Part shown: positions 2,450 through 26,659 of the stretch, piece after piece
Position numbering within the stretch: position 1 is the stretch's first letter
Layout: each line of letters opens with the position of its first letter
NCBI GenBank assembly: GCA_003194425.1
Contig: PQXB01000002.1
Coordinates: 30,001 to 62,000, forward strand
DNA: 32,000 nucleotides
Reading direction: 5' to 3'
From: Candidatus Methanophagaceae archaeon
Lineage (GTDB): Archaea > Halobacteriota > Syntropharchaeia > Alkanophagales > Methanospirareceae
Translations under genes and position numbers: made by a program
The notes under the pieces: generated by a model
The model's database searches: none
What the model was told of the DNA's origin: nothing
Seen by the model: the letters and a program-made list of their open reading frames with translations, nothing else

Positions 2450-4616
2450 TATTCTCTTTCTCCTTCTTCTCCTTCCACTGCAGGAAATTGCAGTACGGGC
2501 AGCCGAAGTCCCACGCCCGCCGCTTCCCTTTCCCCACAATCTTCAACTTGAACAGGTAAGGGTGCTCCTCGCATTTGTCCTCGGTCACGACCACCTTTCC
2601 AGTCGTTGAGTTCGGCAGTGGCAGGGAGAAACTGCAGTCAGGGTAGTTGCTACAGCCCAGAAACCTCTTGCCTCGTTTGGATCGCCGTAGCAAGAGTGCA
2701 GACCCGCATTTCGGGCACTCGCCGACGACCTTGTCGATTTTTACGGCTTCTCTAAGCGACTTCGCAATTTCCTCGCGGTTCGCAGTCAGCTCCTTGAACG
2801 CAGCTTTCAGAATCCGCCTCGAATCAGCCACCACCTCCTCCTTCGCACGCTTGCCCACGCTTATTTCGTCCATCTCCTGCTCCAGCGTCTTCGTCATTTC
2901 CGGCTTCGTTACCAACGTCGCGTGCTTCTCCAACGCGTCGACGAGAGCGAAGGCTTTTCCTGTCGGCTTTGCGGGGTTGCCCTGCACGTACTCGCGGTCG
3001 TACAACTTTCCAATTATCTCGTGCCTCGTGCTCTTCGTGCCGAGCCCCAGCTCCTCCATCTTTTTCACCAACCCTGCCTGCGAAATCCTGTTCGGCGGTT
3101 TCGTCTCCTTCTCCACGACCTCAACGCCAACGACCTCCACTCGCTCGCCCTTCTTTAAGTCCGGTAATTTTAGCACCTCCTTCTCCCGCTTCAAATACGG
3201 GTAAACCGCCAAAAACCCCCGTTCCTTCAGTTCCTTCCCCTTCGCCTTCAAAATCTCGCCGCCCGCCTCTACCTTGACCTCCGTGTCCTTCCACTTTGCG
3301 GGGTCCGAGAGCGTAGCCAAGAACCGCCTCACCACGAGTTCGTAGACCTTCCACTCGTCACTGCCTTCCTCAATTTTCTTCTCGCCCGCTTCTGCGGTGG
3401 CGACAGGGTGAATCGGCGGGTGGTCGGTGGTCTTCTTCTTGCCCGCGGTCGGCTTTAGAGTCCTCTTCTTCGCGATTTTGGCAGCGTGCTCCCCGACCCC
3501 AACCCCTAACACCCTGCTGCCCAGAAACATCTTCACCAACGCCCTCAAGTCCAGCGTCTTGGGGTAGGTGGTGTTGTCGGTGCGGTGGTAAGAAATGAGT
3601 CCTGCGAGGTAGAGGCTCTCTGCGACGGTCATCGTGCGTTTCGGCGAGAACCCGAAGGACGCCGCGGCTCTTATGAACGCAGTGGTGTCGAAAGGCGTCG
3701 GCGGCTTCTCAGTCCGCAACTTCGTCTTTACTGCACACACAACCGCACCACCACTGCCCGCACCACCACTGCCTGCACCACCACCTGCTCCTTCTCCAGC
3801 CACTCCAGCCACTCCAGCCACTCCAGCAGCCTCAATTCTCGCCTTCGCCGCCTCTGCCTCCGCCTTCTTCCAGAACTTACCCTTCTCGTGTGCAGCCTCA
3901 AAAATCTCGCCCTTCGCGGTCTTTAATTTTGCAGTCACCTCCCAGTACTTGCGAGGCACGAACTTCTCAATCTCTCGCTCCCTCGCGACCAGCAACGCAA
4001 GCGTCGGGGACTGCACACGACCGACCGAGAAGAGAGAGGAGAAACTCGCAGACAACGAGACGAACCTTGTCAGCGACGCACCCCAGACCAAGTCGGTAAT
4101 TTGTCTCGCTTCGGCTGCTGCTGCGAGGTTGTAGTCCACTTCGCTCCTCGCTGCGAAGCTCTCTTTTATCTCCTTCTCTGTGATCGCGCTGTAACGCATT
4201 CGGTCGATTTTCACGCTCGCCCTCGGCGACAGCAGCGCGGGGTTGGATTTTTTAATAATATTTAGTGCTTCGACGCCGATTAACTCGCCCTCGCGGTCGT
4301 AGTCGGTTGCAAGCGTGAGGGCGTCGGCGTCCTTCGCAATCTGCCGCAACGCCTTGACCACCTCCTTTTTTAGCGGAACCACGACTAACTCGGAATCAAT
4401 TAATTTGTAAGCGTTTGTCAGGCTCCAAGTCTTGTACTCTTTCGGGACGTCCAACTGAACAATGTGCCCGCTCAGCCCAACGACCACTTTCCCGTCGAAC
4501 TCGTACGCGGCTACTTTCTCTACTCCTCCTACCTTCATCTTCTTTGCTCTGCCGTCGGAGAGGATTGCTGCGATTCGCCTCGCTGTCGTCCCTTTCTCTG
4601 TAATTATGTAGTGCAT
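2433..4616 (-). CDS. topA: DNA topoisomerase IA (archaeal TopA/topo III type) with C-terminal zinc ribbons
   Basis: 727 aa. N-terminal TOPRIM (MHYIITEKGTTARRIA...ATDYDREGE), SYHRTDNT active-site Tyr region, C-terminal CPKCGS...CSNYPDC and CPYC. Carries a low-complexity insert AGVAGVAGVAGEGAGGGAGSGGAGSGGA. Confidence 0.9.
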   Translation of the reverse strand: MHYIITEKGTTARRIAAILSDGRAKKMKVGGVEKVAAYEFDGKVVVGLSGHIVQLDVPKEYKTWSLTNAYKLIDSELVVVPLKKEVVKALRQIAKDADALTLATDYDREGELIGVEALNIIKKSNPALLSPRASVKIDRMRYSAITEKEIKESFAARSEVDYNLAAAAEARQITDLVWGASLTRFVSLSASFSSLFSVGRVQSPTLALLVAREREIEKFVPRKYWEVTAKLKTAKGEIFEAAHEKGKFWKKAEAEAAKARIEAAGVAGVAGVAGEGAGGGAGSGGAGSGGAVVCAVKTKLRTEKPPTPFDTTAFIRAAASFGFSPKRTMTVAESLYLAGLISYHRTDNTTYPKTLDLRALVKMFLGSRVLGVGVGEHAAKIAKKRTLKPTAGKKKTTDHPPIHPVATAEAGEKKIEEGSDEWKVYELVVRRFLATLSDPAKWKDTEVKVEAGGEILKAKGKELKERGFLAVYPYLKREKEVLKLPDLKKGERVEVVGVEVVEKETKPPNRISQAGLVKKMEELGLGTKSTRHEIIGKLYDREYVQGNPAKPTGKAFALVDALEKHATLVTKPEMTKTLEQEMDEISVGKRAKEEVVADSRRILKAAFKELTANREEIAKSLREAVKIDKVVGECPKCGSALLLRRSKRGKRFLGCSNYPDCSFSLPLPNSTTGKVVVTEDKCEEHPYLFKLKIVGKGKRRAWDFGCPYCNFLQWKEKKEKENTKSSE

Positions 4617-4697: not shown

Positions 4698-5807
4698 ATG
4701 GCGACAATCATCGGGAAGGTTTTGCGGGTTCTACCACTTAAAGAAGTTAGACCGAGACCAAAAGCAGAACGAACAGCAACAGAACGAACTGCAACAGAAC
4801 GAACTGCAGAGCAAGTAAGCGGTGGCGAGACTAAAAAAATCGTGGACCTCATAATTTCGGACGAGTTTGACTACAGAAAGGTCTCGTTTTGGGAGGAGTA
4901 CGCAGAACTCGTCGCTCGTGGCAAGATAAAGACTGGCGACGTGCTGAAGATTGAGAACGCTTGGATTTTAAGCAGCGAGAAGCAGGCAGCAGAGAAACGA
5001 GCGAACGTCGGGAGATTTACGAGGGTAACCAAAATCTCAAGAGAAATCGACGCTTTGAGCCGTGCCGACTACTTGAGGCAGAACCTTACCGTGCTGGCGG
5101 TTGCGAGACCCGAGAAGAGGGGGCGGGTCTGCGTCGCGGGTGTAACCGAGAACGGCGAGTGGGTGCGACCGCAGGACGTTTACGAAGCAGACACGCAAAA
5201 CTTCAAGAACCTCTGCGTCTCAAAAGTTTATCTCGACGCGTGGCGGGGCAGGCGGGCACGGAAGGAGGACAGGTTCTTCGTCTGCGGCGAGGGTGTGGGC
5301 AGGGAACTGAGCGAGGACGAGAAGCGAGCGTTCCTGGAGCAGAACCTCGACGACTCGGTAGACGCAGTCTTTAAGAGCGGAAAGCAGGGCGAGAGAAGGA
5401 GCTTAGGTCTGATAAAACCACGCATTCTGCGGGTCCACGAGGAGGTGGCGAAGTCGGGAAAAAGGGGAAAGGCAGAGGGAAGGGAAAAAGAGGGAAGGGG
5501 AAAAAGCGGGAAGGGGAAAAAAGAGAGAGTGAAAAGTCACGAACAGTACCTCCGCTTCAACTTCAAAGACGGCTCGGGCAGAACTTACCGCGGGTGGTCG
5601 TGCAGGTGCGACGACTTCTACAAAGCCTGGAACGACCTAAAGCAGAAGCACCGTTGGACTTACGGCTGGAGAATGCTCTGGCGTTTGCGGAGGAGCGAGA
5701 CTTACCTCGTAATTGGGCTCACTTTCTCGGACTACGGCGTTGAGCGGCTGGAGTACGGCGCATACCCAATGATCGTCGGGGTTCATTCAATTAAAAATCA
5801 GAAATAA
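4698..5807 (+). CDS. Hypothetical nucleic-acid-binding protein: N-terminal RPA-like OB fold plus a C-terminal domain resembling the 'dual OB' (DuOB) family
   Basis: 369 aa. The N-terminal pattern KKIVDLIISDEFDYRKVSFWEEYAELVARGKIKTGDVLKIENAWI is typical of OB folds. The second domain starts LTVLAVARPEKRGRVCVAGVTENGEWVRP. An ERTAT x3 repeat and a K/G/E-rich linker are present. Function is not assignable from sequence alone. Confidence 0.55.
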   Translation: MATIIGKVLRVLPLKEVRPRPKAERTATERTATERTAEQVSGGETKKIVDLIISDEFDYRKVSFWEEYAELVARGKIKTGDVLKIENAWILSSEKQAAEKRANVGRFTRVTKISREIDALSRADYLRQNLTVLAVARPEKRGRVCVAGVTENGEWVRPQDVYEADTQNFKNLCVSKVYLDAWRGRRARKEDRFFVCGEGVGRELSEDEKRAFLEQNLDDSVDAVFKSGKQGERRSLGLIKPRILRVHEEVAKSGKRGKAEGREKEGRGKSGKGKKERVKSHEQYLRFNFKDGSGRTYRGWSCRCDDFYKAWNDLKQKHRWTYGWRMLWRLRRSETYLVIGLTFSDYGVERLEYGAYPMIVGVHSIKNQK

Positions 5808-6241
5808 AACTCCCTCACGAACTCCGGCTTCCTCGCCAGCAGGTCCCGAATGCTCACAATTCCCACGAACCTGCCGTTTTCAACAACGGGCAGTCGTTTT
5901 ATTCGCTTCCGCGCTGCGAGTTTGCAGGCTTCGTCTACCGTTGTCTCTGGCTCGACGGTGACTAGAGGAGACGACATTATTTCTCTCGCCTTTACTTCGC
6001 TCGCCCGCTTGTCCTTCAGCAAAACCTTTAACGCAATGTCCCGCTCGGTGATAATTCCCACGGGCTTCCCTCCTTTACTCCCCTCTCGCCCTTCTTTCTC
6101 CCCTTCTTTCCCCTCTTCTCCGCTACTCGTTATCGCCACGCTCCCAATTCCCAACTCGTCCATATCTTCCGCTATTTTCGTAACCAGCGTCTCCTCATCC
6201 TCTGCGATTATTGGACGACTCATTATTTCCCTTATTTTCAT
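5798..6241 (-). CDS. CBS-domain pair protein
   Basis: 147 aa. Two CBS repeats (IMSRPIIAEDEETL...GIGSVAI and REIMSSPLVTVEPETTVDEACKLAARKRIKRLPVVENGRFVGIVSIRDLL). G/E/K insert SSGEEGKEGEKEGREGSKGGKP. Confidence 0.85.
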   Translation of the reverse strand: MKIREIMSRPIIAEDEETLVTKIAEDMDELGIGSVAITSSGEEGKEGEKEGREGSKGGKPVGIITERDIALKVLLKDKRASEVKAREIMSSPLVTVEPETTVDEACKLAARKRIKRLPVVENGRFVGIVSIRDLLARKPEFVREFYF

Positions 6242-6604
6242 CCTTCCCTCTCCTCCTTTCCCTCTTCTTTCCCTCTTCGTTACTCCGCTCTGATATTAGA
6301 ACAAACCTTATTTAAACCTTATTTAAGTCCCGCTCTTATTAAAATCAAAAACATCAAAGTATTTAAACGCAGAAATTATAAAGTAAGTTCGCAAGTGTGT
6401 TGAATTGCAGTGCAAACGTAAACATTTATCGCCGAGAGCGCAAGGGTTTAACCGAGATTCCTTCCAGATGAACGAGGAGAGAGGGGGAGCCCGCGGTAAA
6501 AGAAAATAGCGACGCCTGAACAGAGGCTCTCCCACAAGATCTCTGAATTCTCCACCGCACCTACTTTTATTTTACTAAACTTTTGTGAAAACGAGCGGTT
6601 TCCG

Positions 6605-7618
6605 ATGAAAATAACGATAATCGGCGGGGCAGGAGGAATGGGAAAGTGGTTCGCCGGGTTTTTCAAGGCGAACGGTGCTGAAGTTCGGATCGTGGACAAG
6701 AGCGAGCAGACCGAGGCGGTCGCAAGACAAATCGGCGTGGAATTCTTGAAGACCGACATTTTGGGCGACGAAAAAGAAGAAAAAAAAGAAGAAGGAGAGA
6801 AGGAGGTTGCGGCGACCGAGGTGCTGCTCGTTTCGGTCCCGATTGACTTAACGAGCCGCGTGATTGAGCGAGTGGGACCGAGAATGCCGGCAGGCTCGCT
6901 GCTGATGGATTTAACTTCGGTGAAAAAAGCACCGGTTGCTGCGATGGAACGATTTGCGAGCAGCGGTGTTGAGATTCTCGGCACGCACCCCCTCTTCGGT
7001 CCTTCTGCAAAGAGCCTGCAGGGTCAGACTGTCATTCTCGTGCCTTCAACTTCAAGAAGCGGCTCAAGCGGTTTAGTGAGTTTGAAGGGTTTGAGGGGTT
7101 CGAGGGGTTCGAGGGGTTCGAGGGGTTTGAGGGGTTCGAGGGGTTCGAAATCCGAAAAAATCGCAGAGCTCTTCAAGAGTAAAGGGGCGAGGATTGAAGT
7201 CTTAACTGCGGCGGAGCACGACGAAATAATGGCAGTGGTTCAGGGGCTGACGCATTTTATCCTCATCGCTTTCGGCGTTGCTTTAAAAGACCTCGATTTT
7301 GAGGTCGCACGGGCGAGGCGGTTTATGAACCCGCAGTTCAAAATAATAACCGATTTCGTGGGCAGGCTCCTGCACCAAGACCCGCACCTTTACGCAACAA
7401 TTCAGACGAACTTCGAAATGGGCAGGATTCACGAGGCGTTTTTGACGACTGCCAGCAGGCTGCACGAGTTGGTCTTAGAAGGTAGAGTGGGTGAGTTAGT
7501 AAAAGAAATGCAGGAGGCGAAGAGGCATTTCGGGAACGCCGAGACCGAGCGAGCGTTCGCGGACTCGGAGCGGGTGTTAGAGCAGAAGCTAAAAGAGGGT
7601 GGAAAAAGAAAAAAATGA
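6605..7618 (+). CDS. tyrA: Prephenate dehydrogenase
   Basis: 337 aa. Rossmann motif MKITIIGGAGGMGKWFA, GTHPLFGP, helical C-terminal domain. Insert GLRGSRGSRGSRGLRGSRGS is encoded by a 9-bp repeat. Confidence 0.85.
   Translation: MKITIIGGAGGMGKWFAGFFKANGAEVRIVDKSEQTEAVARQIGVEFLKTDILGDEKEEKKEEGEKEVAATEVLLVSVPIDLTSRVIERVGPRMPAGSLLMDLTSVKKAPVAAMERFASSGVEILGTHPLFGPSAKSLQGQTVILVPSTSRSGSSGLVSLKGLRGSRGSRGSRGLRGSRGSKSEKIAELFKSKGARIEVLTAAEHDEIMAVVQGLTHFILIAFGVALKDLDFEVARARRFMNPQFKIITDFVGRLLHQDPHLYATIQTNFEMGRIHEAFLTTASRLHELVLEGRVGELVKEMQEAKRHFGNAETERAFADSERVLEQKLKEGGKRKK
7084..7147 (+). repeat. 9-bp in-frame tandem repeat (gaggggttc / gaggggttt) x7 inside tyrA
   Basis: Direct reading of 7084-7147. Encodes the (G/L)RGS repeats. 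Confidence 0.9.
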
Positions 7619-8508
7619 GGAGTTTCCTCGAGGAATATTCAAGGCTCGTTGGACTTCTTCTGCTCTCTTTCGTGTTTATTTTCCTTTTTTCAACCCCCTC
7701 AATGATTCTCGCTAAAACGATCACAACGATTGACACCGAGCTCTCGCGTGCGTCCGGGACTGCAACGCCTGTCCGAACGCTGTTGGATTTCGGAAACAAC
7801 GAGCACATTCAGGCTTTTCCGCGGCAGGTCGGCGAGTGGACTGCCGCAAACGATTACAACACGACGCAGGTTGCAGAGAGCCTGGGTGCAGAAGTGGTGC
7901 TCTTGCGTGCCTACAAGCATCCGAAATTCTATCAGCCCGTGATTTTTCTGATTGTGCAGTCCAACGCTCGTTCAAGCTTTCACCCCCCGATCGTCTGCTA
8001 CCCCGCGATGGGCTACGAGATTGAAGAAGAGGGCAAGGCGAAAATAGAGGTGCAGAATTTGAGCTGGGTGGAAAAACCGTTGTACGCTGCCTGGGCGGGG
8101 GAGGGGACTGGCGGTGAGAGGGCGTGGGCGGCGAGCCGAAATTTCAACGACACAATCTCCGCCAAGAAACTCGTCGTCGTAAAGAAAGCAGCGGCAGGCG
8201 AGGTAACCGAGCGACTGGTCGTGCTGTATTTTTATGTAAAAGAGAGCCCTTTTACTTCAGAGAACATTACCTTGGTCCGCGTCTCGGCACTCGCACCCAC
8301 TAAAGGCTCTTACGACGGCGTTCTCGGCGTAACAAAAGAGTTCTTGGGCGAGTCGGTGCCAAGAATGTTTGAACCGCGAAGAGAAGAGGAGCGGGTTATT
8401 TTTATTCTCCTCGATTTAGGTTCTGTGGTGGGTAAAGTGGCGGTTGGCTTGCTGCTCCTTCTCCCGCTGCTGCTCCTCTTTTACCCGCAAATTAAAAGAT
8501 TAATTTAA
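7615..8508 (+). CDS. Membrane-anchored EpsI-like (DUF3485, exosortase/archaeosortase-associated family) protein, putative
   Basis: 297 aa. N-terminal and C-terminal hydrophobic helices. FPRQVGEWTA...LGAEVVLLRAYK...PVIFLIVQSNARSSFHPPIVCYPAMGYEI matches my memory of the EpsI signature (P..iG.W...R.Y...h.P..C.p..G). The start overlaps the tyrA stop (ATGA). Confidence 0.5.
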   Translation: MRSFLEEYSRLVGLLLLSFVFIFLFSTPSMILAKTITTIDTELSRASGTATPVRTLLDFGNNEHIQAFPRQVGEWTAANDYNTTQVAESLGAEVVLLRAYKHPKFYQPVIFLIVQSNARSSFHPPIVCYPAMGYEIEEEGKAKIEVQNLSWVEKPLYAAWAGEGTGGERAWAASRNFNDTISAKKLVVVKKAAAGEVTERLVVLYFYVKESPFTSENITLVRVSALAPTKGSYDGVLGVTKEFLGESVPRMFEPRREEERVIFILLDLGSVVGKVAVGLLLLLPLLLLFYPQIKRLI

Positions 8509-8746: not shown

Positions 8747-9970
8747 TCAACTCCCGCCGTCCCACCGAAACCTCAGCACTGCAGCGATTCCGCCCAACCC
8801 TTTCAGTCGCTTTCCCGGCTCGAACTCAGTGCTGAAGACCACCACTCTCCCCCTCCCGCTCTCCACAGCCTTAAGAATTTTCTCTACCTCACGCCTTTCC
8901 TCCTCCGCCTCCTCCGCCTCCTCACCCTCTTCTTCGCCAGCGCTCAGTTTTTCGTCGCTGACCAGCAGGGTTTCAACCGCGCCGAACTGCAGAGCCTCCC
9001 AGACCTCTTCCTTCCCGTACACCGCCTTTCCGCCCTTCTCTTTACTTATTTCTTGCATTAACTTGTCCAGCAGTCGAACCTCTCGTGTTAGCCGCTCCTC
9101 GCTCTTCAGCCGTTCCACCGCCCCGCGTTTCAGAACCTCCAGGAAGCCCGAAGTTCCGACGCTCGACGCCTGCTCGGTTCTCGCTCGCTTGGCTAACTCC
9201 GCGTCCTTTTCCTTCAAGAACGAGAAAAAGTCGTTCTTCACGAACCCGGGACCTGCGATAATTATTGCCCCTCCTGCTGCTGCTCCTCCTCTGCCTCCTC
9301 TGGATGTGTAAAGAAAAGAGGTCTTCAACTGCTTTAGCACGGCGTTGAAAAAATCGCTTTTACTGCCTGCACCTGCGCTACCCTCTCCTTTCCCGGAGCC
9401 GAGCCTTATCGAGAAGAGTTCGTCTACGCCGTACTGCCTCACGACGCCCGCAACCGCCTCGCCCTCCTCAATCGTAACTACAACAACCTCGGGAGAAGCA
9501 ACCGCCGCCGCTCTCTCCGCCTCTCGCAGCCTCTTCAACTGGTGCTCCTTCCACTCCTTCACGACCGAGAGTTCTGTACCTTGCCCGATGTTTAGGGAGT
9601 GGTAAGACCCCAGTTCTGTCTCCGCTCCCCTCTCCGCCCCCACCTCGATCACGCCTTTCACACGCAGCCTGCGGGAGAACTTGTGAAATTCAACGCTCTC
9701 CACTCTCACGCCCAACCGAACAGGTTTCTTCTCGGTCTTGTCCGGGCGGATTTTGTCGGTCGCTCCTTCTAATCTGCGGTAGGAGAGGGCGAAGACGAGG
9801 TCGCCCGTCTCGATTAAGTGCTTGAGGTGCCACAAGTCGTCCAACGACTCTGGGATTAGCGAAATCTCCCCTGTTTTTCCTCCCCGCCCCTTTTCTCCTC
9901 CCCGCCCCTTTTCTCCTCCGTTCCCCCTTTCTCCTCCTCTCGTTTTTATCCTCTTTTTTAAGACCCGCAT
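8747..9970 (-). CDS. pelA: Pelota (Dom34-like mRNA surveillance / ribosome rescue factor)
   Basis: 407 aa. SLIPESLDDLWHLKHLIETGDLVFA N-domain, eRF1-like middle and C domains. N-terminal insert GGERGNGGEKGRGGEKGRGGKTG comes from an 18-bp repeat at 9873-9935. Confidence 0.9.
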   Translation of the reverse strand: MRVLKKRIKTRGGERGNGGEKGRGGEKGRGGKTGEISLIPESLDDLWHLKHLIETGDLVFALSYRRLEGATDKIRPDKTEKKPVRLGVRVESVEFHKFSRRLRVKGVIEVGAERGAETELGSYHSLNIGQGTELSVVKEWKEHQLKRLREAERAAAVASPEVVVVTIEEGEAVAGVVRQYGVDELFSIRLGSGKGEGSAGAGSKSDFFNAVLKQLKTSFLYTSRGGRGGAAAGGAIIIAGPGFVKNDFFSFLKEKDAELAKRARTEQASSVGTSGFLEVLKRGAVERLKSEERLTREVRLLDKLMQEISKEKGGKAVYGKEEVWEALQFGAVETLLVSDEKLSAGEEEGEEAEEAEEERREVEKILKAVESGRGRVVVFSTEFEPGKRLKGLGGIAAVLRFRWDGGS

Positions 9971-10089
9971 CTTGAGAAGAAGAGATATTTTGTAGCAAAA
10001 AACGCAAAAAAATCAAAAACCTTTTAAACAACATTTTTCTTACATTTTTGTCAAAAGTAAAAATAAAAAATTAGGAGGTGAGGGGAAAA
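9971..10089. promoter_or_regulatory. AT-rich divergent promoter region (pelota <-> cytochrome 1) with TATA-like boxes and a strong SD for cytochrome 1
   Basis: TATA-like ccttttaaaca (about 10019-10031) and aaagtaaaaataaaaaatt (about 10052-10071). GGAGGTG at 10074-10080, 9 nt before ATG 10090. Confidence 0.45.
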
Positions 10090-10908
10090 ATGAACACGAA
10101 CAAATTGGTTTTGTTGGGAGTAGCAGTCGTAGCAATCGGGATATTCGCACTGCCGAGCACGGTCTCGCTCTTCGCAGGTCAGCACGTCTGGTACGACATT
10201 AGCCAACCGGAAAATAATGTTCCGTGTATAAAGTGCCACGCAGATATTTATGGAGAGTTTCTGATGTCGGGTGCTCACCAAACATTAGCTGGCGGAGAGT
10301 CCAGTAATAGCACGAATAGTACTACCTATGATTCAAATAAGGCCTGCGCCGCGTGCCACCGAGTTGACTCTGTTGATTACAAATTCGCAAGTGGAGATGG
10401 CGGCAGCTTCACTCGAGGTAACAAAGCACACGCAGCCGCTACAATCGCGTGTATGGCATGCCATGAATTTGGTTCTACGGCAGAAGACAAGGGACCGGCA
10501 GCGGGAGGATTTGCACAGCCGTCATACGGTGTTGGATTTGAAGGACAACAATACCACTACACCGATGATATGCATAAAGGGGAACACGCAGCACACAACC
10601 CGTTTATTGCACAAGCGATAAACTCAGAGATGCTCGAAGATTCCAACGAGGCGTGCTTAGCCTGCCACACCTACATCCCAGTCAAGATAAACTGGAGCCA
10701 CGCGAGAAGCCTGGAGTTCAACATCGAGCCAGAAATAAATACAACCGACTGGAGCCACGACTGGAACGTAACCGAGTGGGGCATAAATACAAGCAGCTAC
10801 GCCAATGCAACAGTCTGGGGAAACACAACAGGATATGGAAACACGACTTACTACAAAAACTGGCCAGGCGACATAGACGAGATATACGAGAACGAAAACA
10901 GCGATTGA
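10090..10908 (+). CDS. Tetrahaem c-type cytochrome, secreted or membrane-anchored, sequon-rich
   Basis: 4 CxxCH (CIKCH, CAACH, CMACH, CLACH). N-terminal hydrophobic segment LVLLGVAVVAIGIFALPSTVSLFAGQHVWYD. 9 N-x-S/T sequons, 7 of them in the last ~75 aa. ATG 10090 is preferred over the track's GTG at 10078 because of SD spacing. Confidence 0.9.
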   Translation: MNTNKLVLLGVAVVAIGIFALPSTVSLFAGQHVWYDISQPENNVPCIKCHADIYGEFLMSGAHQTLAGGESSNSTNSTTYDSNKACAACHRVDSVDYKFASGDGGSFTRGNKAHAAATIACMACHEFGSTAEDKGPAAGGFAQPSYGVGFEGQQYHYTDDMHKGEHAAHNPFIAQAINSEMLEDSNEACLACHTYIPVKINWSHARSLEFNIEPEINTTDWSHDWNVTEWGINTSSYANATVWGNTTGYGNTTYYKNWPGDIDEIYENENSD

Positions 10909-10928
10909 GCAGCAGCAGTGCAAGACGA

Positions 10929-10988
10929 AGGTAACCCTTCCCTTTCTTCTCTTCGGGGCTGGGGTTACCTACTTTTTTATTTTTTTAG
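10929..10988 (+). terminator. Stem-loop plus T-run downstream of cytochrome 1
   Basis: Perfect 9-bp inverted repeat aggtaaccc (10929-10937) / gggttacct (10962-10970), followed by acttttttatttttttag. Confidence 0.55.
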
Positions 10989-11042: not shown

Positions 11043-11810
11043 ATGCAAGCCTTCGCAGAAGCGGTAATATTAAGCCTCGTGGTCAGTGTGTTCGTAGCAT
11101 CTCTCTTGTTCTTCTTCTACTCGACTGCAGTAAACGGCACCGAACTGCCTCTCCGTCTCTACACCCAAGTCAAGAGAAAATACCGCGAGCATTCAAGGAA
11201 GAAGAGAGTAAAAGAGCGGCTCGAAGAATTCAAGACCGCCTCGGGCAGCAGACCGTCCCTTCTCGTCTCTTCGCTCCTCTTCTCGCTCTTCCTGCTCGTC
11301 GTCTTTGCTCTACTATTTAAACTCGCGTTCTTCTCCGCCGTCACCTCGGACAGCATGCGACCCACATTTGAACGCGGTGACCTCGTGGCAATGCAGAAGA
11401 TTCAGACCACGCCAAAAGAGGGCGACATAATTATGTTTGAGCGACCTGATTTCCTGCTTCCTTTTATTCATCGCGTCGTCGCAGTGACCGAGGAGAAGGG
11501 AGGCAAGCGGAAAGTGAGGACAAAAGGGGACGCTTGCGAGAGAGTAGATCCTTGGGTTCTGCCCGAGGGAGCGGTCGAGGCGAAAGCCGTGCAGTTAGGC
11601 GGACGAGCAGTGGTTCTAAAAGATGTCGGCAATTATTTCATCCTCGACGCCCGAGAGAGGCGAATTGGCAGGTACGGACTGGAATACACTTTTATGAAGA
11701 ACATTTTTTTTATTTTGCGGATGTACGGCTACGCGTTCTGCGTCCTTGCAATCATTGGTTATTTGGTCTTGACGATCAGGGAGATGCAGACGAGGAAGAG
11801 GAGGGGGTAA
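11043..11810 (+). CDS. Signal peptidase I, ER/archaeal (SEC11/SipW-like, Ser-His) type, with an extra N-terminal TM plus basic loop and a C-terminal TM
   Basis: 255 aa. Box B SDSMRPTF, box C GDLV, box D HRVV (His rather than the bacterial Lys), box E TKGDACERVD. Hydrophobic segments at about aa 5-27, 71-97 and 215-243. Basic loop KRKYREHSRKKRVKERL. Confidence 0.85.
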   Translation: MQAFAEAVILSLVVSVFVASLLFFFYSTAVNGTELPLRLYTQVKRKYREHSRKKRVKERLEEFKTASGSRPSLLVSSLLFSLFLLVVFALLFKLAFFSAVTSDSMRPTFERGDLVAMQKIQTTPKEGDIIMFERPDFLLPFIHRVVAVTEEKGGKRKVRTKGDACERVDPWVLPEGAVEAKAVQLGGRAVVLKDVGNYFILDARERRIGRYGLEYTFMKNIFFILRMYGYAFCVLAIIGYLVLTIREMQTRKRRG

Positions 11811-11814
11811 AAAG

Positions 11815-12600
11815 ATGAAAGGATTCTTCTTAATCGCGGTTGCAGTAGTCGCGGTCGGCATCTTCGTGCTTCCGAGCACGGTCTCGTTCTTCACCGAGCA
11901 GCACAACTGGTACGACCTTTCTCCAGCGACACATGTGCAAGCGAGCTGGGGAAGAAATGATGTGCCGTGCGAGAAATGTCATACTGATGTTGAAGGACAG
12001 ATGCAGAGTCCTGAGAACGGTGCGCACCGCGATTTAACCTGCGCTGATTGTCACAGGGCTCCTTTTACCGAATATAATTACGCTCGCGGGAACTACATTT
12101 GCGTAAACAAATTTGGAATCCCCAAATGGCAAGGCACAAAACCAGGTAAAGAAGCACACGCCGCATCCGTGGTCGCGTGTACGGACTGTCACACTGCTAA
12201 TGACACCGAGATACACCCGCGTGACCCTGAATATGTTACAAGGTGTAACGACTGCCATCACTCTCCGCCGAAAGAAATTGAAGATAAATGGAAATGGATG
12301 ATCGCAGGCGGTTTCGGACTGACCGGTAGAACGAACGACACAGGCGAGAAGGAGGCACACGAGAAGTTCCTGCACGACGCGATTGAGAACGCCTCCTTGA
12401 AAGGTTCGAACGAGGCTTGCATCGCCTGCCACACTGCTACCTCGGTTACAGTCACATATTTAGTGCCGCAAGGCTACAAAATTAAGTCAAGCAGGAAGTG
12501 GGAGGGCGACGAGGCTTGCGGCGAGTGGGAAGTTAATTTCTCGTACTGCAACTTTACCCGCGTGGAAGGAGCGAGCGGAGGAGCGAGCGGCGATGATTAA
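11815..12600 (+). CDS. Pentahaem c-type cytochrome, paralogue of cytochrome 1
   Basis: 5 CxxCH (CEKCH, CADCH, CTDCH, CNDCH, CIACH). N-terminus FLIAVAVVAVGIFVLPSTVSFFTEQHNWYD. Starts 4 nt after the peptidase stop. Confidence 0.9.
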   Translation: MKGFFLIAVAVVAVGIFVLPSTVSFFTEQHNWYDLSPATHVQASWGRNDVPCEKCHTDVEGQMQSPENGAHRDLTCADCHRAPFTEYNYARGNYICVNKFGIPKWQGTKPGKEAHAASVVACTDCHTANDTEIHPRDPEYVTRCNDCHHSPPKEIEDKWKWMIAGGFGLTGRTNDTGEKEAHEKFLHDAIENASLKGSNEACIACHTATSVTVTYLVPQGYKIKSSRKWEGDEACGEWEVNFSYCNFTRVEGASGGASGDD

Positions 12601-13744
12601 AATCAAATACAAATACAAGGTCGCGGTGCTCGTCTTGGTTGTTCTTACTGCGTCTTTAGCCTGTTCTGTCTTCTCTTCTTCTCTCTTTGAGGGGCAGCAC
12701 ACTTGGTACGACCTCTCTGCGCCCGAAAACGATGTGTCCTGCTACAAGTGCCATAAAAATATCAGAGCAGAGTTTGACGAGACGCCCTCGACGCCCCTGC
12801 CTCCGGGAAGCGGTGTACCGCACAAGGACAAATCGTGTGAGTACTGCCACAGGAGCGAGCCGGGCGTAACCTACGCGAACGGCTCTGGTAAGTACTCGGA
12901 GCCTGGTGAAGAAGCCCACGCCGCCTCTGTTCCCTTGTGCCAGCAGTGCCACGAGCACGAGAGCAAAGACCTCGCGGCTGCAGATGAGTCGCACAAGCCG
13001 TTGAACCGGGGTGGAGGGAGTGGCTCTGCCGCAGAGTCTAACGAGGCTTGCGTCTTGTGCCACACGGGCTTTGACAAGAGCATTGACTTTACGAGACCGC
13101 TCTATGTGGAGTACGAGATTAAGAATGTCAGCGGAACTTGGTTAGTTCATAATTTCAACCTCGGTCCGAGCAGCACCGCCACAGTAAACCTGACCCCACC
13201 CGGCGAGAGGCACACTTGGAAGAACGCGTCCGCGGTCAACTGCTTTGACTGCCACTCCGACATCAAGAACGCACTCAAGAACGGTGGGCACGTGCCGAGC
13301 AGTGGAAAAACTCTTTCAGGCACCGCAGTTTCAGGACACAAAGGCAGGCGACACAACTTTAGTAGAACCAGCACCGGCGTGAGCGTCGAAGACTGTAAGC
13401 CCTGCCACCGACCGAGTTTGTCTGACTTTGGAGCAGGCTACAACCACTTGGAAGCACGGCTCGACTACCACGCCGCGACGACCGAGCACTGCTACGACTG
13501 CCACTACAACGGAACTGCAACCGCGTTCAACGAAACTGGCTCAGGCTGTGTAGAGTGCCACAACATTTTACGAACTCCTGGAAACCACACCGAAATATTG
13601 AACAGCACCTTCTCCCAGAATTTCTGCGGGTACAAAATTGACAAGGTCTGCGTCGGCTGCCACCTGCCTGGTCCTGGCACCAGCGTGCCGTTTTCCGACA
13701 GGCACTTCACGATTTACACCGAGCCGAACGCCACAATTTTATGA
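12593..13744 (+). CDS. Nonahaem c-type cytochrome: shared tetrahaem core plus a 5-haem C-terminal extension
   Basis: 9 CxxCH (CYKCH, CEYCH, CQQCH, CVLCH, CFDCH, CKPCH, CYDCH, CVECH, CVGCH). N-terminus VAVLVLVVLTASLACSVFSSSLFEGQHTWYD. 8-nt overlap with the upstream cytochrome (gcgATGATTAA). 10 sequons. Confidence 0.9.
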   Translation: MIKIKYKYKVAVLVLVVLTASLACSVFSSSLFEGQHTWYDLSAPENDVSCYKCHKNIRAEFDETPSTPLPPGSGVPHKDKSCEYCHRSEPGVTYANGSGKYSEPGEEAHAASVPLCQQCHEHESKDLAAADESHKPLNRGGGSGSAAESNEACVLCHTGFDKSIDFTRPLYVEYEIKNVSGTWLVHNFNLGPSSTATVNLTPPGERHTWKNASAVNCFDCHSDIKNALKNGGHVPSSGKTLSGTAVSGHKGRRHNFSRTSTGVSVEDCKPCHRPSLSDFGAGYNHLEARLDYHAATTEHCYDCHYNGTATAFNETGSGCVECHNILRTPGNHTEILNSTFSQNFCGYKIDKVCVGCHLPGPGTSVPFSDRHFTIYTEPNATIL

Positions 13745-15689: not shown

Positions 15690-16475
15690 CTCGCTCTCCG
15701 AGAGTTCCGAGCCCGCTAAATGCCAGCGGTCGCAGTAAGACAGGAACACCTGCAGTGCCTCTTGGTACGCTGCTTCAGAGAATTCTCTCCACTCCACCCC
15801 CGAGACCGCGGTCTTGGTCTTGACATTCTTGGTCTTAACATTTTTGTCTTTGTCCAGCCGAAGCACGCCTAACCCCTGAACCCGCTCGCCGCTTCTTTCT
15901 TCGTAAGCCCACCTGTACGCACTTACTTGAAGGAGGTGCTCGGGGCGAATTATCCGCGAGGTCTTTAGGTCCACGACGTACAGCCGACCGTCCAAGTACC
16001 CGAGAAGGTCCAAAGATCCTGCGTAACCCTGCTCGCTCCAGACACCTAACTCAACCCCAACAGCCTCAAACCCAGTCGCCGCCTCCCACTCGAGAAACGC
16101 AGAAAACGGGTTCTTAATCTCCTCGTCTTCCACTTCAACTTCTTCCACCTCAACTTCTTCCACCTCAACTTCTTCCACCTCAACTTCTCGCTCCTCCCTT
16201 CCTGCCTCTTCCTCTTGTCTTGTCTTGAGTTTGAGGTTGAGGTAGCGTTCGATTGCCTTGTGCACCCGCGTTCCGAGGTCAGCAGCGTGGTCAGAGATTT
16301 CACGCCACCTCGGCTCCCTCTCCTTCCACGCCTCCAGTCCAGGCTTTCTAACGCTGTCCAAAATTGTCGTAACGCTCGGCAGAATTCCAATCGGGGTCCT
16401 GTAAAAATGCTTGGATGCGGTTTTGATCAGTTCTATCTCACCTTTCTTGCCTCTCTCTGCTCTCTCGTTTTTCAT
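15675..16475 (-). CDS. PD-(D/E)XK (RecB/Cas4/lambda-exonuclease-like) nuclease family protein
   Basis: Internal ATG (16475..16473; MKNERAERGKKGEIELIK...) is preferred over the 327-aa track ORF, whose N-terminal 61 aa overlap the divergent rimI region. Motifs GSLDLLGY...LYVVDLKTS (D...D/ExK) and QVSAY (QxxxY). EEVEV x4 acidic insert. Confidence 0.65.
   Translation of the reverse strand: MKNERAERGKKGEIELIKTASKHFYRTPIGILPSVTTILDSVRKPGLEAWKEREPRWREISDHAADLGTRVHKAIERYLNLKLKTRQEEEAGREEREVEVEEVEVEEVEVEEVEVEDEEIKNPFSAFLEWEAATGFEAVGVELGVWSEQGYAGSLDLLGYLDGRLYVVDLKTSRIIRPEHLLQVSAYRWAYEERSGERVQGLGVLRLDKDKNVKTKNVKTKTAVSGVEWREFSEAAYQEALQVFLSYCDRWHLAGSELSESELFRE
16127..16186 (-). repeat. 15-bp in-frame tandem repeat x4 (cttccacctcaactt on +) inside the nuclease gene
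   Basis: Units at 16127, 16142, 16157 and 16172. Encodes (EVEVE)n. Confidence 0.9.
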
Positions 16476-17855: not shown

Positions 17856-17938
17856 TGCGGGGGGCAGGATTCGAACCTGCGAACCCCTTCGGGAGCAGAT
17901 CTTGAGTCTGCCACCTTTGGCCTCTCGGTAACCCCCGC
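17856..17938 (-). tRNA. tRNA-Leu (anticodon CAA), class II with long variable arm, no encoded CCA
   Basis: Reverse complement GCGGGGGTTACCGAGAGGCCAAAGGTGGCAGACTCAAGATCTGCTCCCGAAGGGGTTCGCAGGTTCGAATCCTGCCCCCCGCA. 7-bp acceptor stem, anticodon stem GCAGA/TCTGC with loop CTCAAGA, T-arm GCAGG-TTCGAAT-CCTGC. Confidence 0.9.
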
Positions 17939-20158: not shown

Positions 20159-20940
20159 TCTCCCTCTCTTTCCTTCTTCCCTTCCACTTCCTCGCCTTCC
20201 TTCTTCCTTTCCACTTCCCCGCCTTCCTTCTTCCTTTCCACTTCCTCGCCTTCCTTCTTCCCTTCCACTTCCTCGCCTTCCTTCTTCCCTTCCTCTCCCT
20301 TCTCTGCTTCAGATTTTACCGGTTTTGGCTTTAACTCCGCATTTTTATTCACAGCGACCACGCGAAGAGCGTCAGGCACTTTTGCGTCTGGCTTCACAAT
20401 CCAGACCCTCACGCCAATAACCCCCGTCCTTGACTTCGCGATTGCGTAGCCACGATCCACAATCTCCTCCGCGACTACACCGCAATGTTTTATGTAGCCG
20501 TCGATCATCTTTTCCATACGACCCCGCGGTCCCTTGAGCTTGCCCGACATTATAATTTCGCAGCCCAACGCCCCTCTGTCCATTATTCGTTGCAGCGTTG
20601 ACCTGCCTGCCCGTCGGAAATGCCAGCCTCTTTCGATGAGTTTTGCGAGTCGGTTAGCCATCAACGACGCGTTCAAGTCCGGCACGGAAATCGGTTGCAC
20701 ATCAATTTGCGGGTTGTCCAGTTCTTGTTTCCGGGCTACATCTTCTGTCAGCTGTTTTATCCGCCGCCCATCTTTTCCAATTATCATCCCCGGCTTCTCA
20801 ACGTTCACCGTTATCTGCGTCCCCATCGGGGTCCTTTTCATTTCCATTCCCCCGTACCCCGCCCGCTCCAACTCCTTCTCAAAAAACTCGTCCATCCGAA
20901 CCTTCTTTATCCCTTCCTTCACAAAAATCTTCTCTATCAC
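20155..20940 (-). CDS. rps3: 30S ribosomal protein uS3 with a repeat-built C-terminal extension
   Basis: 261 aa. KH domain region plus GALGCEIIMSGKL. The C-terminal ~60 aa are (GKKEGEEVE)n. Confidence 0.95.
   Translation of the reverse strand: MIEKIFVKEGIKKVRMDEFFEKELERAGYGGMEMKRTPMGTQITVNVEKPGMIIGKDGRRIKQLTEDVARKQELDNPQIDVQPISVPDLNASLMANRLAKLIERGWHFRRAGRSTLQRIMDRGALGCEIIMSGKLKGPRGRMEKMIDGYIKHCGVVAEEIVDRGYAIAKSRTGVIGVRVWIVKPDAKVPDALRVVAVNKNAELKPKPVKSEAEKGEEGKKEGEEVEGKKEGEEVERKKEGGEVERKKEGEEVEGKKEREGE
20170..20299 (-). repeat. 27-bp in-frame tandem repeat, about 4.8 copies, encoding the uS3 C-terminal tail
   Basis: Units at 20170, 20197, 20224, 20251 and 20278 (partial). ttccttcttcccttccacttcctcgcc with 1-2 substitutions. 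Confidence 0.92.
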
Positions 20941-24120: not shown

Positions 24121-25149
24121 TTATTTTTTGCGAATATAAATAATCTCCGGCACGCTCGGTTTAGAGTGCGATCTTATCGAGTGCGAGAGTCTTACAAGCC
24201 GCTTCTTCGGTCCTGGAACGCTCCCTTTCACCAAAATAAACCCGTTCCGCACCTCCCCGTACTTCACGAAGCCACCCTTTGGCGTTACCTCCTCGCCGTT
24301 CTCCCCGATTTTCAGGACTTGCTTGTTGTACTCGGTTCGCTGCTGGTAGCCGGTCTGCCCGAGTTGAGGGATTTTCCAGCGCACCCGCCGCGGCTTCCAA
24401 GCCCCAATGCAGCCCACGTGGCGACCTCTTCCCGACCGCCGCGCCTTTGCATTCTGAATCATCACACCCCACCGCTTCACGGGTCCCTGCGTGCCTTTCC
24501 CAGTCGTTACTGCGGTAACATCCACAAAGTCGCCGTCTTTGAAGACCTCGCCGATTTTTAACTCCTTTCCAAGCACTTCTCTCGCGTACTCAAGGTCTTT
24601 CTCAACCTCGACGCCCCCCCCGCTCATCTTTATTTCCATCGTCTCGTGCTTCTTCTTCGGCACCCCGCTCACGAGTTTTGGCTGCGTTGAAATTAGCAAA
24701 GTCACGCTAAAATCGTGCGCGTTGCCCTTGACGCTCGCACTTTTGATTAGGTCTGCCACCTTCTCAAAACCCGCTTCAGCCCCTGCGCCTGCCTCTGCGC
24801 CTGCCTCTGCGCCTGCCCCTGCGCCTGCCCCTGCGCCTGCCTCTGCTCTCACTTCGGTTACCACCCGCTTTCCGTAGCTGGTATTTTTGTAAAGCCGAAG
24901 ACCTTCTACCCTCACAGGCGGCGTCTCGATTACAGTCGCAGGAACGGAAATCTCCATTCCTTTTGTCAGGCTGTGCGGGGCGTTGTCTGCTAAAATGAGG
25001 TGCGTCATTCCGGCTTTGTAGCCCGCAAAACCCTGAATCCTTCTGCCTGCCGCTCTCTCTTCTCTTTTGATCCTGCAAGTCTCACTTCTCGCCCGCGTTC
25101 TCGGTGAGAAGGCGAGTGAGCCTCGTCTTGGTCGGTGTCGTTTGGACAT
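24121..25149 (-). CDS. rpl3: 50S ribosomal protein uL3
   Basis: 342 aa. RHRPRRGSLAFSPRTRA...GFAGYKAGMTH...TGKGTQGPVKRWG. (A/E)G insert. Confidence 0.95.
   Translation of the reverse strand: MSKRHRPRRGSLAFSPRTRARSETCRIKREERAAGRRIQGFAGYKAGMTHLILADNAPHSLTKGMEISVPATVIETPPVRVEGLRLYKNTSYGKRVVTEVRAEAGAGAGAGAGAEAGAEAGAGAEAGFEKVADLIKSASVKGNAHDFSVTLLISTQPKLVSGVPKKKHETMEIKMSGGGVEVEKDLEYAREVLGKELKIGEVFKDGDFVDVTAVTTGKGTQGPVKRWGVMIQNAKARRSGRGRHVGCIGAWKPRRVRWKIPQLGQTGYQQRTEYNKQVLKIGENGEEVTPKGGFVKYGEVRNGFILVKGSVPGPKKRLVRLSHSIRSHSKPSVPEIIYIRKK
24777..24848 (-). repeat. 12-bp in-frame tandem repeat x6 (gcgcctgcc[c/t]ct on +) inside rpl3
   Basis: Direct reading. Encodes [26 protein letters not shown]. Confidence 0.9.
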
Positions 25150-25250: not shown

Positions 25251-26402
25251 ATGGATTTCATCGACCAGATAAAAGCACTGTCTGATCAGATTTCTAAAGA
25301 ATTGGAGCATTTAGAGACGGAGGAGGCGACGAAGCACGCCCTTGTTCTGCCGTTCATTAACGCGCTGGGTTACAATGTCTTTAATCCTTGGGAGGTGGTG
25401 CCGGAATTCACCTGCGATGTCGGGAAAAAGAAGGGTGAGAAAGTGGATTACGCGTTGATGAAAGCCGGAAAACCAATTATGCTTTTTAAGTGCAAGTCTG
25501 CGAACGCTGACCTGGGAAAGGAACACGCAGACCAACTTTACAGATATTTCTCGGTTACCGAGGTAAAAGTCGGGGTTCTCACGAACGGGGTCGTCTACAA
25601 ATTTTACAGCGACCTCGAAGAGACGAACAAAATGGACGCAAAACCGTTTCTTGAACTTGACCTGCTTGACTTGAAGGAGGTGGTTGTAGAGGAGTTGAAA
25701 CGGTTCAGGAAGGAGTCTTTTGACTTGGGTGCGGTTGTCTCTGCGGCGAGCGAGTTGAAATACTCGAAAGAAATAAAGAGGATTCTGGGAGAGGAACTCA
25801 ATTCGCCCTCCGACGAGTTTGTTAAGTTCTTTACGAAGCAGGTTTACTCGGGAAGGGTGACAAAAACGGCTCTGGAAAAGTTTAGGGAAATTATTCACCA
25901 AGCGTTTAAACAGTTCGTCAACGAAAAGATCAGCGACCGACTGAAATCGGCGTTGGAGAAGGAGCAAGAGCAAGAAGGTGCTGCAGGTGTAGCAGAAGAG
26001 CGCGGTGCGGAGGGCGGGAGGAGTGAAGAAAAGAAAGAGAAAGAAGAGGGTCTTGTCACGACCGAAGAGGAAGTAGAGGGTTTTTTTATTGTCCGTGCGA
26101 TTTTGCGTGAGACTACTGAGCCCGAGAGAGTTATTTTGAAGGACCGGAAAAACTACTGCAACGTTCTGCTGGACAACAATATTAGAAGACCGATTTGCAG
26201 GTTCTACTTCAACACCCGGCAGAAATATGTAAGTTTCTTTGACGCGGAGAAAAAGGAGGAGAAGGTGGCGGTAGAGAACTTGAGTGAGATTTACAACTAC
26301 GCTGAGAGGCTTAAAGCAACGGTCGACTACTACAAGGGCTACGAGGGAAGTGGCGTACCTGAAGCTAGTCCAGAATCAGAAAAAGAAAACAAAAACATTT
26401 AA
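25251..26402 (+). CDS. Type I restriction enzyme R N-terminal (HSDR_N-like, PD-(D/E)XK fold) domain protein of unknown function
   Basis: 383 aa. ETEEATKHALVLPFINALGYNVFNPWEVVPEF...GEKVDYALMKAGKPIMLFKCKS...QLYRYF...VGVLTNGVVYKFY. C-terminal module EEEVEGFFIVRAILRE...NYCNVLLDNNIRRPICRFYFN recalls a widespread standalone family. No methylase or specificity genes nearby. Confidence 0.7.
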   Translation: MDFIDQIKALSDQISKELEHLETEEATKHALVLPFINALGYNVFNPWEVVPEFTCDVGKKKGEKVDYALMKAGKPIMLFKCKSANADLGKEHADQLYRYFSVTEVKVGVLTNGVVYKFYSDLEETNKMDAKPFLELDLLDLKEVVVEELKRFRKESFDLGAVVSAASELKYSKEIKRILGEELNSPSDEFVKFFTKQVYSGRVTKTALEKFREIIHQAFKQFVNEKISDRLKSALEKEQEQEGAAGVAEERGAEGGRSEEKKEKEEGLVTTEEEVEGFFIVRAILRETTEPERVILKDRKNYCNVLLDNNIRRPICRFYFNTRQKYVSFFDAEKKEEKVAVENLSEIYNYAERLKATVDYYKGYEGSGVPEASPESEKENKNI

Positions 26403-26425: not shown

Positions 26426-26508
26426 GCGGGGGTTGCCAAGAGGACAAAGGCGCAGCGTTGAGGTCGCTGTCCCGTAGGGGTTCGAGGGTTCAAATCCCTC
26501 CCTCCGCA
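26426..26508 (+). tRNA. tRNA-Leu (anticodon GAG), class II, no encoded CCA
   Basis: GCGGGGGTTGCCAAGAGGACAAAGGCGCAGCGTTGAGGTCGCTGTCCCGTAGGGGTTCGAGGGTTCAAATCCCTCCCTCCGCA. Acceptor stem with one G-U pair, anticodon stem CAGCG/CGCTG with loop TTGAGGT, T-arm GAGGG-TTCAAAT-CCCTC. Confidence 0.9.
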
Positions 26509-26511
26509 CTT

Positions 26512-26659
26512 GAGGTAGAGTAAAGGGAGAGAGAAGGGAGGGAGTAGGAGAAAGAGGAGTAAAGGAGAGAGGGAGAGGGAGAGGGAGAGAGAGGGGAGGG
26601 AGTAGGAGAGAGGAGAAGAGGAGAGAGGAGAAGAGGAGAGAGGAGGAGAGGAGAGAAAG
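26512..26659 (+). repeat. About 150-nt near-pure polypurine (GA) tract between tRNA-Leu and ftsZ
   Basis: Direct reading: only a handful of T and no C from about 26512 to the ftsZ ATG. Internal reiterations include gggagag x3, ggagtaggag x2 and gagaggagaagag x2. Confidence 0.85.

Follow-up and report, generated by a model that had tools for sequence, protein, structure and literature searches.

We analyzed the cytochrome gene cyt1 in a 32,000-nt stretch of archaeal DNA (hereafter the window). The gene occupies positions 10090–10908 of the + strand, from the ATG at 10090 to a stop codon ending at 10908. By its sequence, the 272-aa product is a full-length homologue of nanowire subunits of the AvECN type, i.e. 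of the extracellular cytochrome nanowire of Archaeoglobus veneficus. It is probably the counterpart of AvECN in Methanophagales (ANME-1, a group of the anaerobic methanotrophic archaea, ANME) and a good nanowire candidate, though one already anticipated. As the initial annotation of this DNA had stated, cyt1 is a tetrahaem protein of about 270 aa with exactly four CxxCH motifs: (i) C46IKCH (residues 46–50; 10225–10239), (ii) C86AACH (residues 86–90; 10345–10359), (iii) C121MACH (residues 121–125; 10450–10464), and (iv) C189LACH (residues 189–193; 10654–10668), all on the + strand. Every cysteine of the protein lies within these motifs. The gene is followed on the same strand by those for a signal peptidase (11043–11810) and two paralogous cytochromes, cyt2 (11815–12600) and cyt3 (12593–13744).

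The assignment of cyt1 to the AvECN family of tetrahaem c-type cytochromes was based on homology, alignment, and predicted fold. Comparison with all PDB chains (phmmer) yielded one strong match, 8e5g_A, in which residues 1–260 of cyt1 aligned to residues 1–256 (E = 1.5 × 10−68). Identity to AvECN was 51% in a MAFFT alignment and 49% by BLASTP, and the motifs at C46, C86, C121, and C189 aligned with those at C46, C81, C115, and C185 of AvECN. The primary report of the AvECN filament is reportedly that of Baquero and colleagues, in Cell in 2023. Entry 8E5G is the cryo-electron microscopy structure of this nanowire (F2KMU8) (PMC12954529; PMC12203936; bioRxiv 2023.06.12.544705).

The predicted fold led to the same protein. 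The AlphaFold model of cyt1, a monomer without haems built on 96 relatives, was of moderate confidence (predicted local distance difference test, pLDDT, 66; predicted template modelling score, pTM, 0.57). In a Foldseek search of the PDB with this model, 8e5g was the sole match at E ≤ 0.001 (E = 7.6 × 10−15, probability 1.00), with 47% identity over 230 columns and TM-scores of 0.59 for the query (TMq) and 0.71 for the 220-residue target (TMt). The solved chain of 8E5G covers 220 of the 262 AvECN residues. A structural resemblance to filament-forming cytochromes, which the initial annotation had proposed as a check, was thus found. The kinship in question held for Archaeoglobus AvECN, by sequence as well as by model, but not for the other nanowire cytochromes: Pyrobaculum PcECN and Geobacter OmcS, OmcE, and OmcZ were absent from both the PDB sequence matches and the Foldseek list (E ≤ 10 in each). 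At the level of homology and predicted fold the nanowire interpretation of cyt1 is supported; its function we infer.

Relatives of cyt1 comprised 254 clusters at 50% identity (E ≤ 10−3) among 1.8 billion representatives. They were found in Archaeoglobaceae, Methanophagales (ANME-1), Candidatus (Ca.) Methanoxibalbensis, Syntrophoarchaeum, and metagenome-assembled genomes (MAGs) of Methanosarcinales. The best protein cluster was 97% identical to cyt1 and the best match among GTDB species representatives 51%; the lineage carrying cyt1 lies outside that set of representatives. The host is a Methanophagales archaeon. Ribosomal protein L3 of the window was nearest to proteins of Methanophagales and 'Ca. 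Methanospirareceae', and a protein from a 202-kb contig, filed at NCBI under 'Methanophagales archaeon', matched the peptidase encoded downstream of cyt1 with 100% identity. The same operon was present on contigs from SRR6664617 and ERZ27227320.

Conservation of residues was assessed in the 96 relatives. None of the eight haem cysteines varied, nor did any motif histidine of the four. Bis-His ligation of four haems requires four histidines outside the motifs; H32, H114, and H169 were invariant as well, and H63 was kept in 89 and H204 in 93 of the 96 sequences. In the alignment, H32, H114, H169, H63, and H204 correspond to H32, H108, H165, H64, and H200 of AvECN, for which three of the four distal histidines are supplied by another subunit (PMC12203936). 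H32, H63, H114, and H169 are candidate distal or inter-subunit haem ligands of cyt1. The segments bearing H32 and H114 had pLDDT values below 50 in the monomer model, which is compatible with ligands that would become ordered only between subunits.

The putative N-terminal export and processing region (residues 1–35; 10090–10194, + strand) consists of MNTNK, a hydrophobic stretch, and then LPSTVSLFAGQHVWY. It resembles a signal peptide in its pattern of basic residues, hydrophobic stretch, and small residues, yet it is unusually conserved. Highly conserved positions are A15, G17, L21, P22, T24, S26, L27, F28, G30, Q31, H32, W34, and Y35, and six of them (P22, F28, G30, H32, W34, and Y35) were invariant in the 96 relatives. 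The motif LPSTVSLFxGQHxWY is common to cyt1, cyt2, cyt3, and the A. veneficus proteins. We also noted that the approximately 35 N-terminal residues, ..A.G.FALPSTVSLFxGQHxWY, were near-invariant at all three places in the window (10090–10194, 11815–11910, and 12593–12710), in the 96 relatives, and in all paralogues. Conservation far above that of an ordinary signal peptide suggests either a dedicated recognition and processing signal or a structural role of the H32-bearing tail.

At the other end of the protein, residues 198–260 (10681–10869, + strand) form a haem-free, beta-rich domain. The initial annotation had drawn attention to this part as a C-terminus without haems, rich in W, Y, N, and T and with seven N-x-S/T sequons, and indeed seven of the nine sequons of cyt1 fall within residues 201–253, i.e. 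in its last ~70 residues. Composition-preserving shuffles of the protein contained 3.3 sequons on average (P = 0.0016), and the sequons at N233 and N245 were kept in 91% and 93% of the 96 relatives. This region is the conserved beta-rich domain of AvECN and no peculiarity of cyt1.

Elements around the gene were largely as first described. The 119-nt intergenic region 5′ of cyt1 (9971–10089) has an A+T content of 74%, compared with 47% in the whole window, and contains a TATA-like TTTTAAA (10022–10028, + strand) as candidate archaeal promoter; a sigma-70 promoter scan was set aside because the host is an archaeon. A Shine-Dalgarno (SD) sequence, GGAGGTG, is located at 10074–10080 (+ strand), 9 nt before the ATG. 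The strong SD which had been taken as a mark of cyt1 is real, but it is not unique to this gene: cyt2 (GGAGGGGG) and cyt3 (GGAGGAG) also have strong sites of the GGAGG type, and of the four genes only that for the peptidase is without one. On the 3′ side, a terminator-like element (10929–10986, + strand) combines the perfect 9-bp stem reported earlier (10929–10937 paired with 10962–10970, plus one G·U pair) with the tract T6AT7 at 10973–10986. Its minimum free energy was −23.7 kcal/mol (z = −1.95), and 9 of 200 shuffled sequences folded equally well; taken alone, the hairpin is only weakly significant. A terminator scan limited to loops of at most 8 nt missed it, as its loop is longer. In archaea, an oligo-T tract serves as termination signal, and here it outweighs the hairpin. 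Of 65 related loci, 57 had such a run behind their best cyt1-like gene, compared with 24% of random 150-nt windows. Alignment of the upstream and terminator regions with the two contigs sharing the operon (L002 and L003 in our numbering of related loci) gave no comparative signal, the sequences being near-identical. The distance from cyt1 to the peptidase gene is 134 nt and includes the terminator; between the three genes that follow there is first a gap of 4 nt and then an overlap of 8 nt. The long gap and the terminator suggest that cyt1 forms a transcription unit of its own, and its own SD and terminator are consistent with a major subunit that would be made in excess.

The family to which cyt1 belongs has been described before. 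It was reported as the most widespread and most transcribed group of small multihaem cytochromes in ANME and was linked to AvECN, and the corresponding alignment (S14 Fig of Chadwick et al. 2022) contains AvECN, its paralogue, and a tetrahaem protein of ANME-1 GB60 (PMC9012536). Through the sequences in S14Fig.faa, the GB60 protein could be identified with the open reading frame (ORF) at 4530–5318 of L005 and with PXF50482.1/ALG76137.1, to which it is identical; its identity to cyt1 is 51%. The supplements of Chadwick et al. yielded no GenBank accessions for the ANME-1 G60 proteins. The most transcribed member of the family reached 7.09 in ANME-1 GB37 and 6.69 in GB60; Mcr apart, hardly any pathway gene was higher (PMC9012536, S3 Data). 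Highly expressed 4-haem cytochromes together with haem-staining intercellular filaments were reported for ANME-1 consortia (Krukenberg et al. 2018, PMC5947290). Suzuki et al. (2024) tied a clade including ANME-1 members to AvECN; its member MmcX (Methanocellales Met12), for which 8E5G served as modelling template, was put forward as a nanowire and has been expressed in Shewanella, a cytochrome-competent host. The widespread ANME group of small multihaem cytochromes and MmcX are of the same family as cyt1. Members of the ANME group are among the most transcribed ANME genes, whereas cyt1 is known from its sequence, and the high expression that the initial annotation had ascribed to it is supported by analogy only, namely with family members in ANME-1 cultures. 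As the assignment of the family has already been published, and so has the idea that its ANME homologues form nanowires, the cyt1 locus represents an added member.

Taken in this context, cyt1 probably serves an ANME-1 archaeon as the main building block of a haem wire of the AvECN type, being exported, loaded with haem, processed at its N-terminus, and polymerized via His-haem bonds between subunits, with a glycosylated C-terminal sheath and with a syntrophic partner as recipient of the electrons. The N-terminal hydrophobic segment would direct export of the precursor, and four c-type haems would be attached at the CxxCH motifs, as expected from the chemistry of the family. Processing would occur near the LPSTVSLFAG/QH site, possibly by the neighboring SipW-like peptidase, and the mature N-terminus would be expected around S26/L27 or G30/Q31. 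Subunits would then stack head-to-tail, with H32, H63, H114, and H169 as putative sixth ligands of the haems, so as to give one continuous bis-His haem chain within a protein sheath. The outer face of this sheath would be the sequon-rich beta domain, which is probably N-glycosylated. The filament may carry electrons from the oxidation of methane or alkanes off the cell, with minerals or a syntrophic sulfate reducer as acceptor. The tightly coupled genes for the peptidase and the 5-haem and 9-haem paralogues may provide maturation and minor components such as a base or an adaptor.

Several points weigh against this interpretation. Polymerization, secretion, glycosylation, and abundance of cyt1 itself are predictions; the ligand assignment is drawn from conservation; and the model is of moderate confidence, free of haem, and monomeric. 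The family holds many paralogues with 3 to 11 haems, and polymerization has been demonstrated for one member only. What cytochrome filaments do physiologically is also a matter of continuing debate (PMC11936953). Finally, the hydrophobic segment at the N-terminus is more conserved than a cleaved signal peptide and might be kept as a membrane anchor.

The last point leads to a different function, which we judge unlikely: cyt1 could be a non-polymerizing carrier, either held at the cytoplasmic membrane by an uncleaved N-terminal helix or free in the pseudo-periplasm, and act like CymA/NapC or as a shuttle from the quinol or methanophenazine pool to outer cytochromes. The unusual conservation of the hydrophobic N-terminus would suit such a role. 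The solved chain of 8E5G, which lacks part of AvECN, is in turn compatible with loss of an N-terminal segment, and the nearest characterized relative, ~50% identical along its whole length, was isolated in the form of an extracellular homopolymeric filament. Searches of Pfam and NCBIfam returned weak generic multihaem matches and nothing stronger. Sub-threshold Pfam matches to the cytochrome c3/c7 families and to NapC/NirT (PF03264) would also speak for a carrier; the latter covered residues 76–126 only and scored 16.2 bits (E = 0.0089), below the gathering threshold of 24.1 bits, for which reason a CymA/NapC-type annotation was rejected. Chadwick et al. considered a CymA-like role for small multihaem cytochromes of ANME, but the proteins they had in view carry a C-terminal membrane anchor or a PGF-CTERM motif (PMC9012536). 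Four conserved histidines outside the motifs and a conserved haem-free C-terminal domain, both as in the filament protein, also argue for the nanowire subunit rather than the carrier.

The genes downstream of cyt1 form a compact module. The peptidase (11043–11810, + strand) is of the SipW/Sec11 type, i.e. an S26 signal peptidase of the archaeal or endoplasmic reticulum (ER) type, and belongs to a narrow, ANME-associated subfamily. It passed the cut-off of TIGR02228 (60.3 bits versus 51.85), and its SDSMRP (Ser), IHRV (His), and KGD (Asp) motifs aligned with SGSMEP, VHRV, and KGDNN of human SEC11A/C. Against the SipW equivalog it scored 33.7 bits (cut-off 190). The subfamily comprised ~77 clusters with at least 221 bits, the next match having 128 bits. 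In 7 of 77 genome loci, from ANME-1, Syntrophoarchaeum, and related MAGs, the peptidase gene adjoined family cytochromes; among the same 77 loci, it was absent from all those labelled Archaeoglobaceae, Archaeoglobus, or Geoglobus. Chadwick et al. had noted that cytochrome clusters of ANME include a signal peptidase, and they assumed that it removes signal peptides (PMC9012536). The '8xTMH' haem-handling-like gene that they reported with the peptidase was not found beside the present cluster. The ORF at 4698–5807 had no Pfam match; its product has many charged residues, and on visual inspection no long hydrophobic stretch was seen.

Both cytochromes of the module are paralogues of the cyt1 family. 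cyt2 (261 aa, + strand) starts 4 nt past the peptidase gene and encodes five haem motifs, and cyt3 (383 aa, + strand), which overlaps cyt2 by 8 nt, is a nonahaem protein composed of the family core and a 5-haem C-terminal extension. With cyt1 they have in common the N-terminal motif, haems 1–3, AGGF, and the SNEACxxCHT motif of haem 4. Identity to AvECN was 32% for cyt2 and 30% for cyt3, with E-values of 2 × 10−30 and 1 × 10−26, versus 1.5 × 10−68 for cyt1. According to the alignment, cyt3 is without the segment that carries the invariant H169. Its AlphaFold model, based on an 11-sequence alignment, was too poor for a fold search (pLDDT 48, pTM 0.37). A tetrahaem gene followed by 5-haem or 6-haem paralogues is the rule in loci of Archaeoglobus, ANME-1, Methanoxibalbensis, and Syntrophoarchaeum.

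A single gene order, with small or no gaps, recurred in all four loci that were seeded with homologues of the peptidase: peptidase, family cytochrome with 4–6 CxxCH, and 9-haem cytochrome (405–435 aa); in L085 the gene for the 4–6-CxxCH cytochrome is split by a run of N. The conserved module of three translationally coupled genes was located at 11043–13744 in the window, 6001–8823 in L081/L082, 6001–8743 in L083, 6001–8697 in L084, and 6001–8730 in L085, and also at 2677–5517 in L060, where the cytochrome encoded by the third gene has 6 CxxCH. In several genomes it occurs without an adjacent tetrahaem gene of the AvECN type. In the ANME-1 loci L037, L039, L047, L048, and L080, the peptidase gene is followed by that of a tiny cytochrome of ~108–135 aa with 2–3 CxxCH and a degenerate N-terminal motif (MPNTISLFGGDH), and farther downstream a 4-haem protein of ~153–185 aa is encoded, with a lipoprotein-like N-terminus and a Pro/Thr-rich linker. 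The version of the latter protein in L047 is a truncated ORF with 3 CxxCH. Two parts of the locus have been described less: the three-gene module with its fixed order, and the N-terminus, which is highly conserved and shared by the cytochromes.

These parts led us to a more specific mechanism, which we put forward tentatively and with considerable doubt. Cleavage by the peptidase would free the N-terminal tail with H32, which would plug into the haem of the next subunit and trigger polymerization; the 5-haem and 9-haem paralogues, bearing the same tail, would sit near the membrane as a base or adaptor, from which the cyt1 polymer would be nucleated and supplied with electrons. We propose this because the N-terminal ~35 residues are near-invariant in cyt1, cyt2, cyt3, and hundreds of relatives, because H32 directly follows the likely cleavage site, and because a narrow peptidase subfamily shares an operon with 4–6-haem and 9-haem members of the family. 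Such a process would be analogous in its logic to a donor strand or to SipW/TasA, and the cluster would then be a dedicated assembly line for cytochrome wires, beyond a mere subunit. The A. veneficus locus has no such peptidase gene, and yet this archaeon makes a filament; the peptidase is therefore no general requirement of the family.

Quite improbable, in our view, is a mixed filament or complex of cyt1 with cyt2 and cyt3, or a wire of cyt2 and cyt3 to which cyt1 is accessory: the elements common to the three proteins, the recurrent order of tetrahaem and 5-/6-haem genes, the translational coupling of cyt2 and cyt3, and the occurrence of the module apart from cyt1-type genes would all fit it, but the AvECN filament is described as a homopolymer despite the pentahaem paralogue adjoining its gene, cyt1 keeps the AvECN architecture including the C-terminal domain (with the E-values given above), cyt3 is devoid of the H169 segment, and the terminator after cyt1 suggests a different stoichiometry.

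Comparison with known systems places the locus closest to that of AvECN (F2KMU8/AEA46122). Besides ~50% identity, four equivalent CxxCH, and the same histidines outside the motifs, cyt1 has the N-terminal LPST.SLF.GQH.WY, the haem-free, sequon-rich C-terminal beta domain, and the predicted fold in common with AvECN, and in both genomes a pentahaem paralogue is encoded downstream of the tetrahaem gene. The two differ in their hosts, a methane or alkane oxidizer of the Methanophagales (ANME-1) versus a sulfite- or thiosulfate-reducing Archaeoglobus, and in two loops, one joining haems 1 and 2 and the other joining haems 3 and 4. The SipW-like peptidase and the nonahaem paralogue of the cyt1 cluster are absent from the A. 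veneficus locus. A filament was seen for AvECN, whereas cyt1 is known from its gene and a model. In A. veneficus (L001), AvECN (6001–6789) and the adjacent pentahaem paralogue (6961–7779) have diverged in their N-terminal halves, whereas their C-terminal domains of ~70 residues are identical, from PVKINWTHKVSLEF to NWPGW, bar one F/Y difference; this looks like recent gene conversion.

The 'insulated' nanowires of PcECN (A3MW92, PDB 8E5F), OmcE, and OmcS would share with a cyt1 wire the proposed working principle, even though they showed no detectable relation to cyt1 in sequence or fold. According to reviews, the multihaem subunits of such wires polymerize, their bis-His haems alternate between stacked and T-shaped pairs, and His ligation reaches across subunits (PMC12954529; PMC12203936). 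The arrangement of the peptidase gene in turn resembles the tapA-sipW-tasA operon of Bacillus subtilis, in that a SipW/Sec11-type S26 peptidase is encoded in an operon with secreted, proposed fibre proteins that share a conserved N-terminus. In tapA-sipW-tasA, a dedicated signal peptidase of the ER/archaeal type is encoded together with a secreted fibre subunit. The peptidase studied here differs by its low score against SipW, its putative substrates are cytochromes without a TasA fold, and its link to them is suggested by synteny only.

Some further features of the window were noted. The window is chromosomal and carries a ribosomal-protein operon and genes for FtsZ, Spt5, PAN, Pelota, and topoisomerase. 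The gene at 7615–8508, two genes 5′ of cyt1, encodes a protein of 297 aa that has hydrophobic segments at its termini and an exosortase-associated domain (EpsI/DUF3485). It was considered as a sorting partner and dropped, as no related cytochrome locus had a counterpart. Many short tandem repeats with periods in multiples of 3 (9–27 nt) lie within housekeeping genes, at 3743–3827, 4765–4808, 7087–7148, 9868–9937, 16126–16188, 20163–20300, 24779–24846, and other sites. Repeat-bearing genes include those for topoisomerase, prephenate dehydrogenase, Pelota, a PD-(D/E)XK nuclease, and ribosomal proteins S3 and L3; the repeats encode insertions rich in Gly, Arg, Glu, and Lys, e.g. GSRGSRGS, GGEKGRGG, EVEVEEVEVEE, and five copies of KKEGEEVEG. 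Two tRNA-Leu genes are located at 17856–17938 (− strand) and 26426–26509 (+ strand), with anticodons CAA and GAG, and a long purine-rich repeat of GAGA type (26524–26660) lies between the second of them and ftsZ. A 383-aa protein consisting only of the N-terminal domain (HSDR_N) of a type I restriction R subunit is encoded at 25251–26402, flanked by the ribosomal-protein operon and a tRNA-Leu gene.

It has long been asked how ANME-1 archaea transfer electrons from methane oxidation to their sulfate-reducing partners. Haem-staining intercellular filaments and very highly expressed 4-haem cytochromes have been observed, but the structure of an ANME filament is still to be solved. Since the literature already contains the family and connects it with AvECN, the locus opens no new category, and it will be no surprise to specialists. 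It does provide a clean and complete ANME-1 version of the sole archaeal tetrahaem family proven to polymerize, together with likely maturation and partner genes, and it thereby defines concrete targets, namely cyt1, its private peptidase, and the 5-haem and 9-haem paralogues.

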